Below, in pieces: positions 39,495 through 48,756 of a stretch of DNA of 64,000 bases (positions are counted from its first letter, which is position 1; each line of letters opens with the position of its first letter). The DNA comes from Escherichia coli. Its GTDB lineage: Bacteria; Pseudomonadota; Gammaproteobacteria; Enterobacterales; Enterobacteriaceae. A program made the translations under genes and the position numbers. The stretch lies in the NCBI RefSeq assembly GCF_013122565.1, contig NZ_CP053258.1. One strand, 5' to 3'. The notes beneath the pieces are model-generated. The model searched no databases and was not told the origin of the DNA. It saw nothing but the letters and a program-made list of their open reading frames with translations.

Positions 39495-39605
39495 TATCAT
39501 CGCAACCAAACGACTCGGGGTGCCCTTCTGCGTGAAGGCTGAGAAATACCCGTATCACCTGATCTGGATAATGCCAGCGTAGGGAAGTCACGGACCACCA
39601 GGTCA
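39495..39605 (+). promoter_or_regulatory. TPP (thiamine pyrophosphate) riboswitch in thiM leader
   Basis: ggggtgcccttctgcgtgaaggctgagaaatacccgtatcacctgatctggataatgccagcgtagggaa matches the classic thiM thi-box aptamer, immediately upstream of thiM SD. Confidence 0.8.
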
Positions 39606-39636: not shown

Positions 39637-40425
39637 ATGCAAGTCGACCTGCTGAGTTCCGCGCAATCTGCGCACACGTTACACCTTTTTCACCAACATT
39701 CCCCTCTTGTGCACTGCATGACCAACGATGTGGTGCAAACCTTTACTGCCAATACCTTGCTGGCGCTCGGTGCATCGCCAGCGATGGTTATCGAAACCGA
39801 AGAGGCCAGTCAGTTTGCGGCTATTGCTAGTGCCTTGCTGATTAACGTTGGCACGCTGACGCAGCCACGCGCACAGTCGATGTGTGCCGCCGTTGAGCAA
39901 GCAAAAAGCTCTCAAACACCCTGGACGCTTGATCCAGTAGCGGTGGGTGCACTCGATTATCGCCGCCGTTTTTGTCTGGAACTTCTGTCTCATAAGCCAA
40001 CCGCCATACGTGGTAATGCTTCGGAAATCATGGCATTAGCTGGCATTGCTAATGGCGGACGGGGAGTGGATACCACTGACGCCGCAGCTAACGCGATACC
40101 CGCTGCACAAACACTGGCACGGGAAACTGGCGCAATCGTCGTGGTCACTGGCGAGATGGATTATGTTACCGATGGACATCGTATCATTGGTATTCACGGT
40201 GGCGATCCGTTAATGACCAAAGTGGTAGGAACTGGCTGTGCATTATCGGCGGTTGTCGCTGCCTGCTGTGCGTTACCAGGCGATACGCTGGAAAATGTCG
40301 CATCTGCCTGTCACTGGATGAAACAAGCCGGAGAACGCGCAGTCGTCAGAAGCGAGGGGCCAGGCAGTTTTGTTCCACATTTCCTTGATGCGCTCTGGCA
40401 ATTGACGCAGGAGGTGCAGGCATGA
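39637..40425 (+). CDS. thiM: Hydroxyethylthiazole kinase
   Basis: 262-aa ORF after TPP riboswitch; GGCAGGAG SD. Confidence 0.95.
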
Positions 40426-42156: not shown

Positions 42157-42903
42157 ATGGAACAAGCGCATACCCAGCTGATTGCCCAACTGAACGAGCG
42201 TATTTTAGCGGCGGATAACACGCCGCTTTATATTAAGTTTGCCGAAACGGTAAAAAATGCCGTGCGCAGCGGGGTGCTGGAGCATGGCAATATTTTGCCC
42301 GGTGAGCGTGATTTAAGTCAGTTAACCGGCGTTTCGCGCATTACGGTGCGCAAGGCGATGCAGGCGCTGGAAGAAGAGGGCGTGGTGACGCGTTCGCGTG
42401 GTTACGGCACGCAGATCAACAACATCTTCGAATACTCGTTGAAAGAAGCGCGAGGTTTTTCTCAGCAGGTGGTATTGCGCGGGAAAAAGCCCGATACGCT
42501 ATGGGTTAACAAGCGTGTCGTGAAATGTCCCGAAGAAGTCGCGCAGCAGCTGGCGGTCGAAGCGGGAAGTGATGTCTTTTTGCTTAAGCGTATTCGCTAT
42601 GTCGATGAAGAAGCGGTATCGATTGAGGAATCGTGGGTTCCGGCGCATTTAATTCATGATGTTGATGCCATCGGAATTTCTCTTTATGACTATTTCCGCA
42701 GCCAGCACATTTACCCACAACGTACGCGTTCCCGCGTTAGCGCCCGGATGCCAGATGCCGAGTTTCAGTCACATATTCAGTTAGATAGCAAAATACCGGT
42801 GCTGGTGATCAAGCAAGTGGCGCTTGACCAGCAGCAACGGCCTATTGAGTACAGCATCAGCCACTGTCGCAGCGATCTATACGTTTTTGTGTGCGAGGAG
42901 TAG
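42157..42903 (+). CDS. yegW: GntR-family (HutC-like) transcriptional regulator YegW
   Basis: N-terminal winged-HTH, C-terminal UTRA-like domain. Confidence 0.85.
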   Translation: MEQAHTQLIAQLNERILAADNTPLYIKFAETVKNAVRSGVLEHGNILPGERDLSQLTGVSRITVRKAMQALEEEGVVTRSRGYGTQINNIFEYSLKEARGFSQQVVLRGKKPDTLWVNKRVVKCPEEVAQQLAVEAGSDVFLLKRIRYVDEEAVSIEESWVPAHLIHDVDAIGISLYDYFRSQHIYPQRTRSRVSARMPDAEFQSHIQLDSKIPVLVIKQVALDQQQRPIEYSISHCRSDLYVFVCEE

Positions 42904-43842
42904 TTCCTCGCGCGTTGGCGCACAATCACCGCCCCGATGCCCGACAACCCACGACGCCACTGCATTCCCCAGTAATACGGCATCCGCCAGTGGCAGACCA
43001 GAAGCCAGCCCGGCAAGTACGCCACCGGCATGACTGTCGCCCGCCCCAATGGTATCTACAACTTGCGTTGGATATGCTGGAACGCAGCCAGAAGCGTTGT
43101 CGCTGAAATACCATGCGCCCTCTTTATCGAGACGAACGATCAACGGCGCGGCAAATTTCTCCTGCCATTGCTTGCCAAGTGTTGTTATCTCTGCGGATAA
43201 AGCAAAACGTTCGGCGGCAATCTCAGCCTCTTGACGATTGAGTGACACTAAAGGTCGACAGGCCATGATCCGCGCCAGTAATGCGTCCGGGATATCGCCA
43301 ATACGTGGGCCAAAATCGATAAACGGCGTCACGTCTTGCAGCTTTTCCAGCCATTCCACTAACAATTCGCCGCAGGGCGAGGCCAGTTGATAACCGGAAA
43401 AATAGAGCAGGCTGCCAGGCGCAACGGTTAATCGTGCCAACCATTGGTGATTCCATTGATTTTCCACACCGCTGAATGACATAAAAGTGCGTTCGCCATC
43501 AGGCTCAACCAGCGCTAGACACCAGCCGTTATCACCTTCGGCGTTATCGATCAGGCTGATTAAGCCCTCTTTTGCCATCCGGTTGCGAATAATCTCCGCC
43601 CATACCCCCTGACCGAGCGGCAAGGCATTACCCGCTTCGATGCCGAGGCGCTTTAACGCCACGGCAATATTCAGTGCGCAGCCGCCAACGTTAACGCTCT
43701 GCTGTTTCAGTTCGATATCGCACCCACGCCAGGGGAGGGCATAAGCGTCGGCGATCACGTCAATGACCGCCGCGCCGACGACCATCACCGGCTGACGCGT
43801 GGTTAATTCAGGCAGCAGCGTGTGTAATCGAGCGCCGCTCAT
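42877..43842 (-). CDS. yegV: PfkB-family sugar/nucleoside kinase YegV
   Basis: PfkB motifs (GG, DTxGAGD); 3' end overlaps yegW 3' end by 27 nt (convergent). Confidence 0.85.
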   Translation of the reverse strand: MSGARLHTLLPELTTRQPVMVVGAAVIDVIADAYALPWRGCDIELKQQSVNVGGCALNIAVALKRLGIEAGNALPLGQGVWAEIIRNRMAKEGLISLIDNAEGDNGWCLALVEPDGERTFMSFSGVENQWNHQWLARLTVAPGSLLYFSGYQLASPCGELLVEWLEKLQDVTPFIDFGPRIGDIPDALLARIMACRPLVSLNRQEAEIAAERFALSAEITTLGKQWQEKFAAPLIVRLDKEGAWYFSDNASGCVPAYPTQVVDTIGAGDSHAGGVLAGLASGLPLADAVLLGNAVASWVVGHRGGDCAPTREELLLAHKNV

Positions 43843-44843
43843 ACCGCCTCCCGTTGTTGACGATATTTCGCCAGCGCCGTGGCATAGCGGTTGAAATCAA
43901 GCTGATTTACCGCATCCAGTTCCGCCTTTAACGCAGGATCGATAGCGTTAACGCCATGCAACGCGCCGCAAATCGCCGTCGCCATAGCACCGATGGTGTC
44001 TGTGTCGCCGCCAAGGTTAGCGCAGAGAACGGCGCAACGGTTCGGGTCGGTTTGTGCCAGTTCAACCAGCGCAATGGCGCACGGAACGGACTCAATAGTG
44101 CTGGTACCTGCGCCAACGACCTGGTAAAGCTGTTCGCTGGCGGATTCGGTGCCGTCGGCATTGCGCACAATTTTCAGCGCAATCTCCAGACGTGCTGCCA
44201 GTGAGGCGCTGAAGGTAGTGATGCGTTTTTGCTGTGCATGTCGCGCAATTGAAGGCAGTGAATCAACAATCGCTGACCAGCTTTCTCCGTCAATGGCACG
44301 AGAAATCGCCCATGCGATGACTACCGCACCTGCAACCGCCAGATCGGATTTATGGGTCGGGCTGGACGCCAGCGCCACATCATCAATAAAGGAATCAACA
44401 TCGCGCGCCGGAAGCAAACAACCTAATGGCGAGACGCGCATCGCTGCGCCGTTGGTCACGCCGTTGTTTTCCAGTTCAGCAACGGGTTTACCGTCGCGAA
44501 TGGCGTTAAGCGCAATCTTCGAGGTCGGACCTAGCACGTTTTTGTTGAAGGCGTCGAAACGCAGCGCCCAGTCGAGGATATTACGCCCAATCAGATCCGG
44601 ATCGATCTTGCCTTCACGTTCCAGCAACGCATCCGCCAGACACAGCGCCATCGAGGTATCGTCGGTGAATTCGGCGCGGTTAAAATAACAGGCCGCGTTA
44701 TTCTCCTTTGGTCCAGGCAGAAAACGGTCAATCCAGCCAAAGTGTGCTTTAACGCGGCTGCGTGGCCAAAGCTCGGAGGGCATCCCCATCGCATCCCCTA
44801 ACGCCTGCCCATAAAGAGCACCGAGAATACGTTCTGTTTTCAT
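43839..44843 (-). CDS. yegU: ADP-ribosylglycohydrolase-family protein YegU
   Basis: 334-aa ORF; ATGA overlap with yegV. Confidence 0.85.
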   Translation of the reverse strand: MKTERILGALYGQALGDAMGMPSELWPRSRVKAHFGWIDRFLPGPKENNAACYFNRAEFTDDTSMALCLADALLEREGKIDPDLIGRNILDWALRFDAFNKNVLGPTSKIALNAIRDGKPVAELENNGVTNGAAMRVSPLGCLLPARDVDSFIDDVALASSPTHKSDLAVAGAVVIAWAISRAIDGESWSAIVDSLPSIARHAQQKRITTFSASLAARLEIALKIVRNADGTESASEQLYQVVGAGTSTIESVPCAIALVELAQTDPNRCAVLCANLGGDTDTIGAMATAICGALHGVNAIDPALKAELDAVNQLDFNRYATALAKYRQQREAV

Positions 44844-46117
44844 TTAACTTCCCCTTGTGTCAACGCAATATCGCGATCATCGACCTTGATAGCCGTAATT
44901 TCGTTGTCGGATTCGCGGAAAAAAATCATGAACAGCACGGCGATAATGGCAATCATCACCGCGCCGAAAGTCCACATCCCGGACCAGTTGAAAGTCAGCC
45001 CGTTTACCGGTTCCGGATAAGCGAACATCTTTTCCATCATCACACCGCCAAGACGATAGCCGAGCAAACTGCCGAAGCCCTGGCAGCAGAGCGTGATCAG
45101 CCCCTGCGCGGCGGTACGCATATGCACGGGGGCTTTTTTATCGACATAGATGTAAGCGGTAACGTAGTAAAAATCGTAACTTACGCCATGCAGCAAAATA
45201 CCGAGGAACAGTAACGCGTAGGTGAAATATTCATCCGCACTACCGTAAATAAAGAAGCCATAGCGGATCGCAGCGGTGACCAGACCAAGCAATAATACCT
45301 TTTTGATACCAAAGCGTTTAGTGAAAAACGGCAATGCCAGCATAAAGAAGATTTCAGAGAACTGGCCGAGCGTCATCCAGCCAGTGGCGTTTTTCATGCC
45401 GACTTCGGTCAGATACCCGTTGGCAAAGATGTAATAGAACGCCAGTGGCATCGCAAACAGGAATGAACAGAAGAAAAAGACGAGGAAGTTTTTATCGCGC
45501 AGTAGGATCAGCGCATCCAGGCCGAGCATGACTTTAATGTCCATTTTGCCGGTGCTTTTTGGCGGCGTGTCGGGCAGGAAAAACGCAAACACACCGAGCA
45601 GAGCAGAACTTCCGGCGGTAATCAGCAGCGGGATGTTAGTCGGTGAGATATCGGCATACCCCAGCATTTGCGGCAAGAAACCACATGCCAGACCGGAGGC
45701 AATCCAGCCGATAGTGCCCATCACACGAATGCGCGGGAAATCACGCTCAACATCCGGCACGTTGGCAAAAGCGATGCTGTTAGTCAGCGCAATGGTCGGC
45801 ATATAGGTTAGCGAGTAGGCCAGCAGTAACGGGAAGAACCCGGCAAAAGTGGTCTGTTGCGCAGCGAAATACATCAGCACCGTACCAGCGAACATCAATA
45901 CCGCCAGCACTTTCTGCGCCGAGAAAAAGCGGTCAGTGATGGAGCCAACCAGAATCGGCGACAGGATCGCCGCAATGGCGGTACAGGCATACGACCAGCC
46001 AATTTCTCCGGCGCTAAAACCGCTTTTACTTAACCACAGCCACAATGGCACAAACCACGCGCCCCAGATAAACCATTCAACAAACATCATGAACGACAGC
46101 TTTGCTGTTGTTTTCAT
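44840..46117 (-). CDS. yegT: Nucleoside:H+ symporter-family transporter YegT
   Basis: 12-TM MFS-like protein; overlaps yegU start by 4 nt. Confidence 0.85.
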   Translation of the reverse strand: MKTTAKLSFMMFVEWFIWGAWFVPLWLWLSKSGFSAGEIGWSYACTAIAAILSPILVGSITDRFFSAQKVLAVLMFAGTVLMYFAAQQTTFAGFFPLLLAYSLTYMPTIALTNSIAFANVPDVERDFPRIRVMGTIGWIASGLACGFLPQMLGYADISPTNIPLLITAGSSALLGVFAFFLPDTPPKSTGKMDIKVMLGLDALILLRDKNFLVFFFCSFLFAMPLAFYYIFANGYLTEVGMKNATGWMTLGQFSEIFFMLALPFFTKRFGIKKVLLLGLVTAAIRYGFFIYGSADEYFTYALLFLGILLHGVSYDFYYVTAYIYVDKKAPVHMRTAAQGLITLCCQGFGSLLGYRLGGVMMEKMFAYPEPVNGLTFNWSGMWTFGAVMIAIIAVLFMIFFRESDNEITAIKVDDRDIALTQGEVK

Positions 46118-46372
46118 CTTTTAATTCCTTCATGACAGGTAATGTAAGGTACGCGATGACAATACCATTTAATAATACCTTTTAAATACCTTTGCGGTGA
46201 AAACTTGACCGCGGTAACATTTTTCTGATGAATCGAGCCAACAGAAAACGCTGAAAAAACATCCAAAAGATGGAAAAACTCGCCTGTAACGACCAGGATT
46301 ATGATTGCCCGCAAAAGGCGGGCCAGGACAATCCATAGCCGATATCCAATCGGAATTTACGGGAGCATAGTA

Positions 46373-47425
46373 ATGACAGATATTGCGCAGTTGCTTGGCA
46401 AAGACGCCGACAACCTTTTACAGCACCGTTGTATGACTATTCCTTCTGACCAGCTTTATCTCCCCGGACATGACTACGTAGACCGCGTGATGATTGACAA
46501 TAATCGCCCGCCAGCGGTGTTACGTAATATGCAGACGTTGTACAACACCGGGCGTCTGGCTGGCACAGGATATCTTTCTATTCTGCCGGTTGACCAGGGC
46601 GTGGAGCACTCTGCGGGCGCTTCATTTGCCGCGAACCCACTCTACTTTGACCCGAAAAACATTGTTGAACTGGCGATTGAAGCGGGCTGTAACTGTGTGG
46701 CATCAACCTACGGCGTGCTGGCTTCGGTATCACGACGTTATGCACACCGTATTCCTTTCCTCGTCAAACTCAACCATAACGAAACACTAAGCTACCCCAA
46801 CACCTACGACCAAACACTGTATGCCAGCGTAGAACAGGCTTTTAATATGGGCGCGGTGGCGGTTGGTGCGACTATCTATTTTGGCTCGGAAGAGTCACGT
46901 CGCCAGATTGAAGAAATTTCTGCGGTTTTTGAACGTGCGCACGAGCTGGGCATGGTGACAGTGCTGTGGGCCTATTTGCGTAACTCCGCCTTTAAGAAAG
47001 ATGGCGTTGATTACCATGTTTCCGCCGACCTGACTGGTCAGGCGAACCATCTGGCGGCAACCATAGGTGCAGATATCGTCAAACAAAAAATGGCGGAAAA
47101 TAACGGCGGCTATAAAGCGATTAATTACGGCTATACCGACGATCGCGTCTACAGCAAACTGACCAGTGAAAACCCCATCGACCTGGTGCGTTACCAGTTA
47201 GCCAACTGCTATATGGGGCGTGCCGGGCTTATCAACTCAGGTGGAGCTGCAGGCGGAGAAACTGACCTTAGTGATGCGGTGCGTACTGCGGTAATTAATA
47301 AACGCGCAGGCGGTATGGGGCTGATTCTGGGGCGGAAAGCATTTAAGAAATCGATGGCTGACGGCGTGAAACTGATTAACGCCGTGCAGGACGTTTATCT
47401 CGATAACAAAGTCACTATTGCCTGA
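46373..47425 (+). CDS. fbaB: Class I fructose-bisphosphate aldolase (350 aa)
   Basis: ORF trimmed to [16 protein letters not shown] with GGGAG SD. Confidence 0.9.
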
Positions 47426-47481: not shown

Positions 47482-48756
47482 TCAGGAGATATTCAATGCT
47501 TTCTCAGTCACTGGCGCAGAACTGAATCCTGGCTGCTCAACGCGAATGAATGCGCAAAGGACAAAGGCCAATAGATACAATGCTGTATAGGCAATGACCA
47601 CACCGATAGTGCTAAACCACGGTAATAACACCACGGCAATTGCCGGAGCCAGGAAGTTAGACATACCCGCAGAGAGGTTGTAAACCGAGATTGCAGCACC
47701 TTTGTGTTTTGGTTCCAGTGCCGGGAAGACAGCGGCCATCGGCACAAATGCAGCAACAAAAGTTCCCAGAGCAATCGCCGGAATCATTGCCATCCAGTAG
47801 TTGTGACCAAAGTATTGCGGCATGTAGTAAAACGCTAAACTTGATGCTGCCATCCCGAGGCAACCAAACCAGCGAATAACACGCATCCAGCCCATTTTTT
47901 CTGCCACAATCCCCCAAAAAATATTAGAGAAAATAGTGGTAAAGAAAAATGCCGCCCAGACCTGCAACCATTCAGAGGTGGTGAATCCCAGTTCATCCAC
48001 AAACATCATTGGCATAATGACCGCAAAACCGAATAACGATAAGGTATTTATAATGCGCACAATACTGGAGAGAAAAATATTGCGGTTGGTATAAAGTAAA
48101 GTTACTGCCCGACTTAATTCTGCAAACTTCTCACGGGGAGTTAAATTATGCATATGTCCAGGCGTTTTAACATGACGCAAGGAGATCATGGCAATGACAC
48201 CGCCAGCAAAGCAGAACGCCAGTGCCAGCCATAAGGTTCCCATTTCACCCATAATCGGTATCGTAAAACTGGGAATATAACTGCCAGCAACACCGATCCC
48301 TACTGAATATACCGCCCAGTACCAACCCAGAGCAGCACTGGAATTTTCGCTACGCACGTTATGAATAATAACGACGATAAATGAGTAGAGAAATAGCGGA
48401 TACGCTAAACCACGAATCCCGTAAAACAGCAGGATTAACCCATAGTTTGCCTGTCCTAATCCAAAGACCAGAAACAGAACATGGAATACGCACCATAGGA
48501 CAAAACCAATCAGCATGGTTTTTTGCGGCGTGATGATTTCCGCTACCACCCCAGAAACCCAGGCGGAAAGGGCAGCCGCCAGGCCGTAGAGCGTAAAGGC
48601 AAAAGAGGCTTCCGCAGGTGTGAAGCCTAACGATTTAATATAGTGCGATAAGAATGCGAGTTCGAAACCATCACCAGTCATAAATACTGCGATGGCGATA
48701 TATCCCCATATCAGATGCAGTGGCAAACCCAACCACTGTTTATTATTTCTGGACAT
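47482..48756 (-). CDS. rbtT: MFS polyol transporter (ribitol transporter-like)
   Basis: ~80% identical paralog of the dalT-like gene at 56485..57762; last gene of rbtD-rbtK-rbtT string. Confidence 0.7.
   Translation of the reverse strand: MSRNNKQWLGLPLHLIWGYIAIAVFMTGDGFELAFLSHYIKSLGFTPAEASFAFTLYGLAAALSAWVSGVVAEIITPQKTMLIGFVLWCVFHVLFLVFGLGQANYGLILLFYGIRGLAYPLFLYSFIVVIIHNVRSENSSAALGWYWAVYSVGIGVAGSYIPSFTIPIMGEMGTLWLALAFCFAGGVIAMISLRHVKTPGHMHNLTPREKFAELSRAVTLLYTNRNIFLSSIVRIINTLSLFGFAVIMPMMFVDELGFTTSEWLQVWAAFFFTTIFSNIFWGIVAEKMGWMRVIRWFGCLGMAASSLAFYYMPQYFGHNYWMAMIPAIALGTFVAAFVPMAAVFPALEPKHKGAAISVYNLSAGMSNFLAPAIAVVLLPWFSTIGVVIAYTALYLLAFVLCAFIRVEQPGFSSAPVTEKALNIS

Follow-up and report, generated by a model that had tools for sequence, protein, structure and literature searches.

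A conserved 27-nucleotide tail-to-tail overlap of yegW (ggaR) and yegV in Escherichia coli and related Enterobacterales

The window considered here, a stretch of 64,000 nucleotides of Escherichia coli DNA (contig NZ_CP053258.1), contains two genes that run toward each other and share their final coding bases. The genes, the shared stretch and the two stop codons are as follows.

42157..42903, plus strand: yegW (ggaR) coding sequence, 248 amino acids, a repressor of the GntR/HutC family that carries a UTRA effector domain, supported by its open reading frame (ORF), Pfam and RefSeq
42877..43842, minus strand: yegV coding sequence, 321 amino acids, a sugar kinase of the PfkB family, encoded last in yegTUV, supported by its ORF, Pfam and RefSeq
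42877..42903, both strands: the shared 27 nt, read as YegW L241-E248 plus stop on the plus strand and as YegV L314-V321 plus stop on the minus strand
42877..42879, minus strand: the yegV stop TAG, which is the yegW Leu241 codon CTA on the opposite strand
42901..42903, plus strand: the yegW stop TAG, which is the yegV Leu314 codon CTA on the opposite strand

The ORF list places yegW at 42157-42903 and yegV at 42877-43842, so that two ORFs on opposite strands have their 3′ bases, 42877-42903, in common and form a convergent overlapping protein-coding pair. Their codons are in register, with position 1 of one gene opposite position 3 of the other (phase 123:321). Loss of the yegV stop would extend YegV by 31 residues, and loss of the yegW stop would extend YegW by 23. 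The sequence-only reading had reported the 27-nt convergent overlap, and the ORFs, the RefSeq annotations of K-12 and NCTC9040, and the 77 sequences compared below all bear it out. In K-12 MG1655 (b2101/b2100), RefSeq shows the identical 27-nt overlap at 2182035-2182061, with yegV at 2181096-2182061 and yegW, annotated as “DNA-binding transcriptional regulator GgaR”, at 2182035-2182781. The overlap is also 27 nt in the RefSeq annotation of NCTC9040, whose YegW is 100% identical to that of the window. Within the species the arrangement is close to universal: of 5426 complete E. coli genomes, 5424 match a 6.3-kb stretch around it, 5417 of these along 80% or more of its length, with the gene names yegX, yegW, yegV, yegU, yegT and fbaB across the matches, and the yegW/yegV junction is in one piece in 5423 of the 5426.

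Both proteins belong to well-defined families, and their domains reach nearly to the shared stretch or into it. YegW has the domain plan of a GntR/HutC regulator, a GntR winged helix-turn-helix at the N-terminus (residues 29-87; PF00392, E 3e-16) and a UTRA domain at the C-terminus (residues 108-242; PF07702, E 2e-36), and structures of YvoA/NagR align with it as far as V245 (E 6e-22). In YegV, the PfkB domain covers residues 19-309 of 321; solved PfkB kinases align with it up to residues 313-316, and those chains run a few residues further.

Upstream of yegV lie the remaining genes of its operon and the region from which the operon is transcribed.

43839-44843, minus strand: yegU, ADP-ribosylglycohydrolase family, an upstream gene of yegTUV
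44840-46117, minus strand: yegT, nucleoside:H+ symporter family, an upstream gene of yegTUV
46118..46300, no strand assigned: yegT-fbaB intergenic region, site of the yegTUV promoter and of GgaR binding as published (PMC10819704)

Each gene of yegTUV (43839..46117 and yegV) joins the next by a 4-nt overlap, and the yegT-fbaB intergenic region has a promoter-like site on the minus strand at 46201..46172. An Rfam scan of 36-50 kb of the window gave the thiM TPP riboswitch as its sole match.

The relation between the two sides of the junction is known from the literature. YegW has been renamed GgaR and described as a single-target repressor of yegTUV, which binds only upstream of yegT (PMC10819704; Saito et al. 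2024), at 190 bp from that gene, on the evidence of ChIP-chip, gel shift, Northern blot and RT-qPCR (PMC10819704). The suggestion, made from the sequence, that YegW may control yegTUV was thus correct: deletion of ggaR raises yegTUV mRNA about 30-fold, and the single mRNA of ~3.3 kb gives a Northern signal only in the deletion strain and none in the wild type (PMC10819704). ADP-glucose, the published effector, releases GgaR in vitro, and yegTUV mRNA is ~3-fold higher in 1% glucose than in 0.25% (PMC10819704). The protein itself is constant at ~20-30 molecules per cell in the media reported, including 1% glucose, and the overlap with yegV goes unmentioned in that paper (PMC10819704). Separately, ExcludonFinder lists yegV-yegW, from RNA-seq coverage, among 165 convergent excludons of MG1655, seen in 50% or more of 58 transcriptomes (Sanmartin et al. 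2025, PMC12288877).

When one genome per species was scanned with YegW, 80 loci came back; the genera represented include Escherichia, Citrobacter, Enterobacter, Klebsiella/Raoultella, Kluyvera, Lelliottia, Pectobacterium, Cedecea and Leminorella. An overlap of exactly 27 nt is seen in the window and at 76 other loci, covering about 70 Enterobacterales species, and among the loci with this overlap YegV identity falls to about 63%. The same 77 sequences served for the codon-use and entropy analyses of yegW, and 68 sequences served for those of yegV.

A closer look at the codons shows how the two stops hold each other in place. At yegW Leu241, opposite the yegV stop, the 77 sequences use CTA (55) or TTA (22) and no other leucine codon, and at 17 other conserved leucine positions of yegW, where codons turn over freely, CTA and TTA together account for 12.4%. 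The reciprocal position, yegV Leu314, again has no other leucine codon: 30 of the 68 sequences use CTA and 38 use TTA. Synonymous variation is zero at yegV codons 315-321, compared with 1-1.8 bits at codons 293-313, and in yegW the synonymous entropy is 0.68 bits inside the overlap versus 1.08 elsewhere. The YegW tail SDLYVFVCEE, which makes up the last β-strand and the tail, is almost invariant. The YegV tail follows the pattern LLL[A/T][H/D/Y/N][K/E][N/D/H][V/I], with substitutions only where the change in yegW is synonymous, that is, opposite yegW wobble bases. In the same way, yegW E247 and E248 are almost always GAG, by which YegV keeps Leu, and not Phe, at L315 and L316. Because stops, YTA codons and tails are all conserved, these comparative data indicate that both reading frames are maintained to their annotated stops, with YegW as the dominant partner. 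Pfam matches, conserved stops, the codon lock and the tail alignments together show two real genes, each under purifying selection up to its stop.

The junction also contains elements that bear on how transcripts from each side may end.

42891..42913, both strands: palindromic GC-rich hairpin with the core GCGAGGA-GTAGT-TCCTCGC at 42893-42911, centred on the yegW stop
42904..43007, plus strand: tract rich in C (44%) and poor in G (21%), antisense to yegV and a candidate for Rho utilisation
42513..42668, minus strand: C-rich, G-poor tract in the 95th-98.5th percentile, a candidate Rho site ~210-360 nt past the yegV stop, antisense to yegW

The hairpin stem is built from yegV codons R311-E312-E313 paired with L315-L316-A317, and its fold energy is -16.2 kcal/mol on the plus strand (z -3.7) and -12.7 kcal/mol on the minus strand (z -4.6). 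A consensus scan found no canonical hairpin-plus-U-tract terminator near the junction on either strand. The bases that follow the hairpin are GCGUUGG on the plus strand and ACACAAAAACG on the minus strand, with no U-tract, and the T-run on the plus strand lies 5′ of the hairpin; the order of hairpin and then U-tract on each strand, which would define a bidirectional intrinsic terminator, is thus absent from the window junction. The sequence-only reading had concluded that the overlap leaves no room for terminators. This stands insofar as there is no intergenic space and no canonical intrinsic terminator, and it goes too far in that a hairpin (42891-42913) and a C-rich tract lie inside the partner coding sequence, an arrangement with precedent, since ~20% of the genes in the 58 convergent overlaps of E. 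coli have predicted intrinsic terminators inside the partner's coding sequence (Lillo & Krakauer 2007, PMC2174442).

Conservation of these elements is partial. The 7-bp hairpin core is complete in 17 of 68 species and mostly has 5-6 of its 7 pairs elsewhere, and the hairpin is missing where Pectobacterium, Cedecea and Leminorella carry the 27-nt overlap. When each fold is ranked against windows of the two genes, the plus-strand hairpin is in the most stable 5% at 29 of 77 loci and the minus-strand hairpin at 0 of 77. The wobble sites that are free to vary favour the pairing codons, with GAG at 78% versus a background of 46.5% and CGC at 74% versus 49%, in counts that ignore phylogeny. One arm of the hairpin is frozen by the overlap, and compensatory changes therefore cannot occur. 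That the hairpin may be selected as RNA is suggestive only. On the plus strand of the window, the excess of C over G at 42904-42981 ranks at the 99.7th percentile among the 78-nt windows of the whole 64 kb, and in relatives the corresponding value 3′ of the junction has a median at the 90th percentile and reaches at least the 95th in 20 of 77. With the hairpin complete in just 17 of 68 species and the C-rich tract at or above the 95th percentile in just 20 of 77, neither signal is clearly selected. On the minus strand, the tract at 42513..42668 is the first C-rich tract that yegTUV transcripts meet beyond the yegV stop, and in relatives the C-rich maximum lies at a median of ~300 nt downstream of that stop. 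The E. coli Term-seq supplement of PMC7815308 has no entry for 3′ ends of yegV, yegW or yegX.

Several relatives depart from the 27-nt overlap, and these cases are informative about how it is held. In Citrobacter amalonaticus S646, the 3′ end of yegW has been partly duplicated in tandem, which places the genes 56 nt apart; yegW Leu241 is now CTG, and YegV extends to a new stop. In C. sedlakii, a 69-nt insert with two hairpins separates the genes and YegV has a new tail. Yokenella has a 1-nt deletion within the overlap that shifts both frames and may be real or a sequencing error, and Salmonella enterica subsp. arizonae retains just a yegV remnant. In more distant orthologues yegW still converges on yegV-yegU-yegT, with a different junction. 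In Providencia and at one further locus (L089), the genes are 32 nt apart and the spacer forms a textbook bidirectional intrinsic terminator, with A-tract, stem and T-tract. The spacer of Yersinia intermedia measures 67 nt and contains a 13-bp hairpin, locus L090 has the genes 242 nt apart, and in Pantoea dispersa they overlap by 14 nt. Aeromonas jandaei has the 27-nt version between IS110 transposase genes, and these flanking genes suggest that its copy was acquired by horizontal transfer.

Since relatives use a spacer or a shorter overlap, the 27-nt overlap is not essential to the circuit of regulator and operon; it is one of several workable junctions for this pair. The length of YegW (248 amino acids) and that of the YegV tail (14 residues after GGDC) are equal in the overlap lineage and at the spacer loci (Providencia, L089 and Yersinia). 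The equal tail lengths would fit a history in which the overlap came first and was resolved by duplication, as in C. amalonaticus S646, but inspection by eye showed no leftover sequence similarity. An origin of the overlap in which one protein was lengthened by stop-codon loss was also considered and is ruled out, as both tails are of normal length for their folds and are the same in relatives that have no overlap.

Taken together, the junction is probably an ordinary case of two functional genes that overlap tail to tail, evolutionarily frozen, and not a dedicated regulatory device. The last β-strand and tail of YegW are under strong purifying selection and dictate the shared sequence, and both leucine codons are restricted to the rare YTA forms, which preserves the two stops. 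An insertion or deletion would harm YegW and YegV alike, and the length of the overlap therefore stays at exactly 27 nt; double coding constraint fully explains the conservation of those 27 nt. The duplication in C. amalonaticus S646 and the insertion in C. sedlakii can be seen as natural “unlocking” events, and as such they support the double-coding lock. The feature itself is ordinary, and the overlap, the relation of regulator and target and the excludon listing are all already present in databases or papers. What is new here is the exact conservation across species, the reciprocal lock of stop and leucine codons, the dominance of YegW over the YegV tail, the natural resolution events, and the alternative junctions with terminators.

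It had also been claimed that transcripts from each side must enter the partner gene, and this holds: the coding sequences overlap, and each functional mRNA is consequently complementary to the other over 27 nt or more. Transcription from both sides would be expected to run on into the partner gene, where Rho would be the most likely factor to end both transcripts after the ribosome leaves at the stop codon. Transcripts of yegW or yegX-yegW would then be predicted to terminate within ~100-200 nt, at the C-rich tract that begins at 42904, and the hairpin at 42891-42913 would serve as their exonuclease-resistant 3′ end. The succession of a hairpin and a C-rich tract on the plus strand fits Rho-dependent termination, as judged from the arrangement of the two elements. 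For yegTUV transcripts, Rho termination would be placed ~200-400 nt into antisense yegW. In the repressed state the effects of collision and antisense pairing are probably small, because each promoter is either weak or under repression, with ~20-30 molecules of GgaR per cell and wild-type yegTUV mRNA undetectable on Northern blots. On induction of yegTUV, the effect would be at most a modest lowering of ggaR expression. The potential mutual interference raised by the sequence-only reading already exists as a general idea in the literature, both in the excludon listing (PMC12288877) and in the account of collision-driven bidirectional termination at hairpins between convergent genes (bioRxiv 10.1101/2022.10.23.513370). 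The excludon listing would allow a regulatory role for the overlap, which we rate as small.

A stronger regulatory reading would have the junction act as an excludon-type feedback. When ADP-glucose frees GgaR, transcription of yegTUV into the 3′ end of ggaR would lower GgaR synthesis, by collision or through RNase III, and reinforce derepression, with the reverse when the operon is repressed. Several observations would suit such a circuit: the two transcripts cannot overlap by fewer than 27 nt, the pair is on the convergent excludon list of MG1655 (PMC12288877), a regulator and its target occupy the two sides (PMC10819704), the junction is conserved, and the first Rho-like tract lies ~210-360 nt into ggaR, so that antisense transcription could reach far. 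Set against this, GgaR is held at its constant ~20-30 molecules per cell even in 1% glucose, where yegTUV mRNA is ~3-fold higher (PMC10819704), and both units are expressed at very low levels, so that collisions should be rare. Relatives separate the same pair by a spacer, with a bidirectional intrinsic terminator in Providencia and L089, and the overlap has been undone in two lineages of Citrobacter, which implies that the circuit works without it. The conservation of the 27 nt, for its part, is accounted for by double coding constraint alone. On balance, we consider this feedback unlikely. Its strongest form, in which the overlap makes ggaR and yegTUV a cis-coupled switch, seems to us decidedly unlikely; here induction of yegTUV would cut GgaR synthesis, by collision or by RNase III cleavage that yields a non-stop ggaR mRNA, derepression would be self-reinforcing or bistable, and the junction would have been conserved partly by selection for the coupling.

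The hairpin at 42891-42913 invites another reading, that of a collision-type bidirectional terminator that pauses RNA polymerase in both directions and sets both 3′ ends without Rho. Elements of this kind have been described between convergent E. coli genes (bioRxiv 10.1101/2022.10.23.513370), and the hairpin here resembles that description, as it forms on both strands, lies exactly at the gene boundary and is unlike an intrinsic terminator, which are the hairpin properties of the collision-type element (Wang 2022); the enrichment of pairing codons (GAG and CGC) would agree with such an element. The published model, however, needs high expression with frequent converging and trailing polymerases (bioRxiv 10.1101/2022.10.23.513370), and both units here are weak. 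The patchy distribution of the hairpin, complete in a quarter of the 68 species and missing from three genera that keep the 27-nt overlap, is also unfavourable, and on the yegTUV strand the hairpin precedes the yegV stop, so that termination there would give a non-stop mRNA. We therefore hold a collision-type terminator at this junction to be very improbable.

That the overlap is an annotation artefact, with one of the C-terminal tails not truly translated, is scarcely credible: although some annotated overlaps are mispredictions (PMC2478687, on large overlaps), 3′-end overlaps are fixed by stops and are independent of start calls, neither stop shifts its position in any of 77 sequences, where the partner is forced to use rare leucine codons, the YegW tail is invariant with synonymous variation, YegV L315 and L316 are maintained, and both tails align to solved homologues. 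The overlap sits at 3′ ends, and the choice of start codon is thus unable to remove it. Alternative start and stop assignments, which the sequence-only reading had named as what would undo its claim, were checked and leave the overlap in place, and misassignment of a start or stop as its source is ruled out by stop conservation and the codon lock.

As an ordinary overlap of two functional genes, the pair is an example of a self-locking tail-to-tail junction, in which the stops are held by rare leucine codons and one protein dictates the tail of the other, and which natural variants undo by duplication. There is a practical consequence as well, as yegW and yegV cannot be edited independently. 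Recoding of TAG to TAA already met overlapping oligonucleotides at this junction (PMC3458525). We infer that deletions designed from the second codon to the seventh-from-last codon of either gene would clip the last codon and the stop of its partner, and such clipping could confound published ggaR and yegV knockout phenotypes. Were the excludon reading true, the junction would give a recently described regulator of glycogen an additional layer of feedback in cis; a large effect of this kind is not favoured.

Comparison with known systems places the pair among familiar ones. Like the GntR/HutC repressors that sit adjacent to the operon they control, and as a relative of YvoA/NagR, YegW combines a GntR helix-turn-helix with a UTRA domain and is encoded beside its only target, yegTUV. 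It differs from them in orientation, since ggaR is convergent with the last target gene and overlaps it, and is not divergent from the operator. The bidirectional terminator of Providencia and L089 occupies the same place between the same genes and likewise has a hairpin that can be read on both strands, but there a 32-nt spacer holds the canonical succession of A-tract, stem and T-tract, whereas the window lacks the order of hairpin and then U-tract.

In the published description of Rho-dependent 3′ ends of E. coli, a stable stem-loop that lacks a U-tract precedes a rut site (Dar & Sorek 2018, PMC6061677). In sequence the plus strand resembles this, with a GC-rich stem-loop that has no U-tract and a C-rich, G-poor tract after it; the yegW/yegV hairpin differs in that it lies inside coding sequence and is only partly conserved. 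A C-rich, G-poor rut-like region is found immediately downstream on the plus strand, and on the minus strand such a tract occurs only at least ~210 nt downstream. Convergent excludons share with the pair their convergent transcripts, complementary 3′ ends and a short or absent intergenic distance (PMC12288877). Excludons are defined, however, by overlapping transcription of untranslated regions and by mutually exclusive expression, whereas the overlap of yegW and yegV is coding and GgaR is reported to be constant. The constancy of GgaR while yegTUV varies 3-fold with glucose argues against a strong reciprocal effect in cis. As far as sequence features go, the junction fits the categories of Rho-protective hairpin, collision element and excludon alike.

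The closest likeness is to the convergent overlaps catalogued in PMC2174442, a common and well-described class in which genes on opposite strands have their 3′ ends in common and the stops lie opposite YTA leucine codons; phase 123:321 accounts for 33% of the convergent overlaps of at least 5 nt (PMC2174442). At 27 nt, the overlap of yegW and yegV is longer than the modal 4 nt and far below suspicious lengths, and there is no qualitative difference. Particular to this pair are its exact conservation in about 70 species and the fact that it joins a regulator to its target. By every feature examined, yegW/yegV is a member of the convergent overlap class.

The junction between the repressor gene yegW and the kinase gene yegV is not an overlap in every relative. 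In the Providencia locus L084 and in locus L089, the two genes are separated by a short spacer (coordinates here and below for L-numbered loci are those within each relative's locus):

L084:5748-5779 (Providencia) and L089:4748-4779, 32-nt yegW-yegV spacer forming a near-perfect bidirectional intrinsic terminator, e.g., AAAAAAGAGACTAGGCCTCTTTTTT

The presence of this terminator argues that a dedicated terminator was lost from, or was never present in, the lineage carrying the overlap. Two Citrobacter junctions are also free of overlap. In C. amalonaticus S646 (L023:5690-5860), the 3′ end of yegW is partly duplicated in tandem (∼80 nt), which sets the genes 56 nt apart, with YegW Leu241 encoded by an overlap-free CTG and YegV extending further to end in ...EELLFAHGDIQVAATRTQ before its stop. 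This locus is a natural case of duplication resolving the overlap. In C. sedlakii, a 69-nt insert carrying two hairpins separates the genes (L016:5748-5816), the second hairpin (GCCGCA...CCCCGATGCGGC) looks REP-like, and the YegV tail differs, reading REQLLVSLKR and stop.

The entire yegW/yegV-yegU-yegT cassette, with its 27-nt overlap intact, is found between IS110-family transposase genes in the non-enterobacterial Aeromonas jandaei (L086:2550-8532), a setting that suggests horizontal transfer of the unit. Elsewhere the operon is in decay in some lineages, as in Salmonella enterica subsp. arizonae (L027), where an intact yegW adjoins only a yegV remnant (residues 255-321), and in E. coli NCTC9040 (L001:5261-6417), where the annotation marks yegT as a pseudogene with a frameshift. 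A 1-nt deletion within the 27-nt overlap of Yokenella regensburgei ATCC 49455 (L064:5720-5750) shifts both frames together, such that YegW would read on for ∼76 codons; either the deletion is an error in the sequence or both genes have become pseudogenes.

On the other side of the operon, window fbaB (46301-47425) shares only 93-95% identity with its K-12 and NCTC9040 counterparts, against ∼97-99% for its neighbours from yegX to yegT. To the right of fbaB lies an RbtT/DalT-type MFS transporter gene (47482-48756), as in NCTC9040, where K-12 has gatY. The fbaB/transporter stretch resembles a segment that has undergone recombination or that borders an island. Among the complete E. coli genomes searched, the best match to the 6.3-kb stretch has an identity of at most 97.6%.

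The overlap also bears on deletion alleles. Judging from the usual deletion design as worded in PMC4958250, a yegV deletion would take out the yegW E248 codon and stop (window 42898-42903), and a ggaR deletion the last codon and stop of yegV (window 42877-42882). Because such a design would remove the partner's last codon and stop, reported ggaR- and yegV-deletion phenotypes might include effects of an altered partner protein.

Several window features surround the junction:

39506-39602, plus strand, TPP riboswitch upstream of thiM (Rfam RF00059, 71 bits)
40422-40425, 4-nt same-strand overlap of thiM/thiD
43839-43842, 4-nt same-strand overlap of yegU/yegV
44840-44843, 4-nt same-strand overlap of yegT/yegU

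Since thiM, thiD, yegX, and yegW are all plus-strand genes, thiMD read-through could reach yegV and contribute to its antisense transcription. Same-strand overlaps of 4 nt are the usual arrangement in translational coupling.
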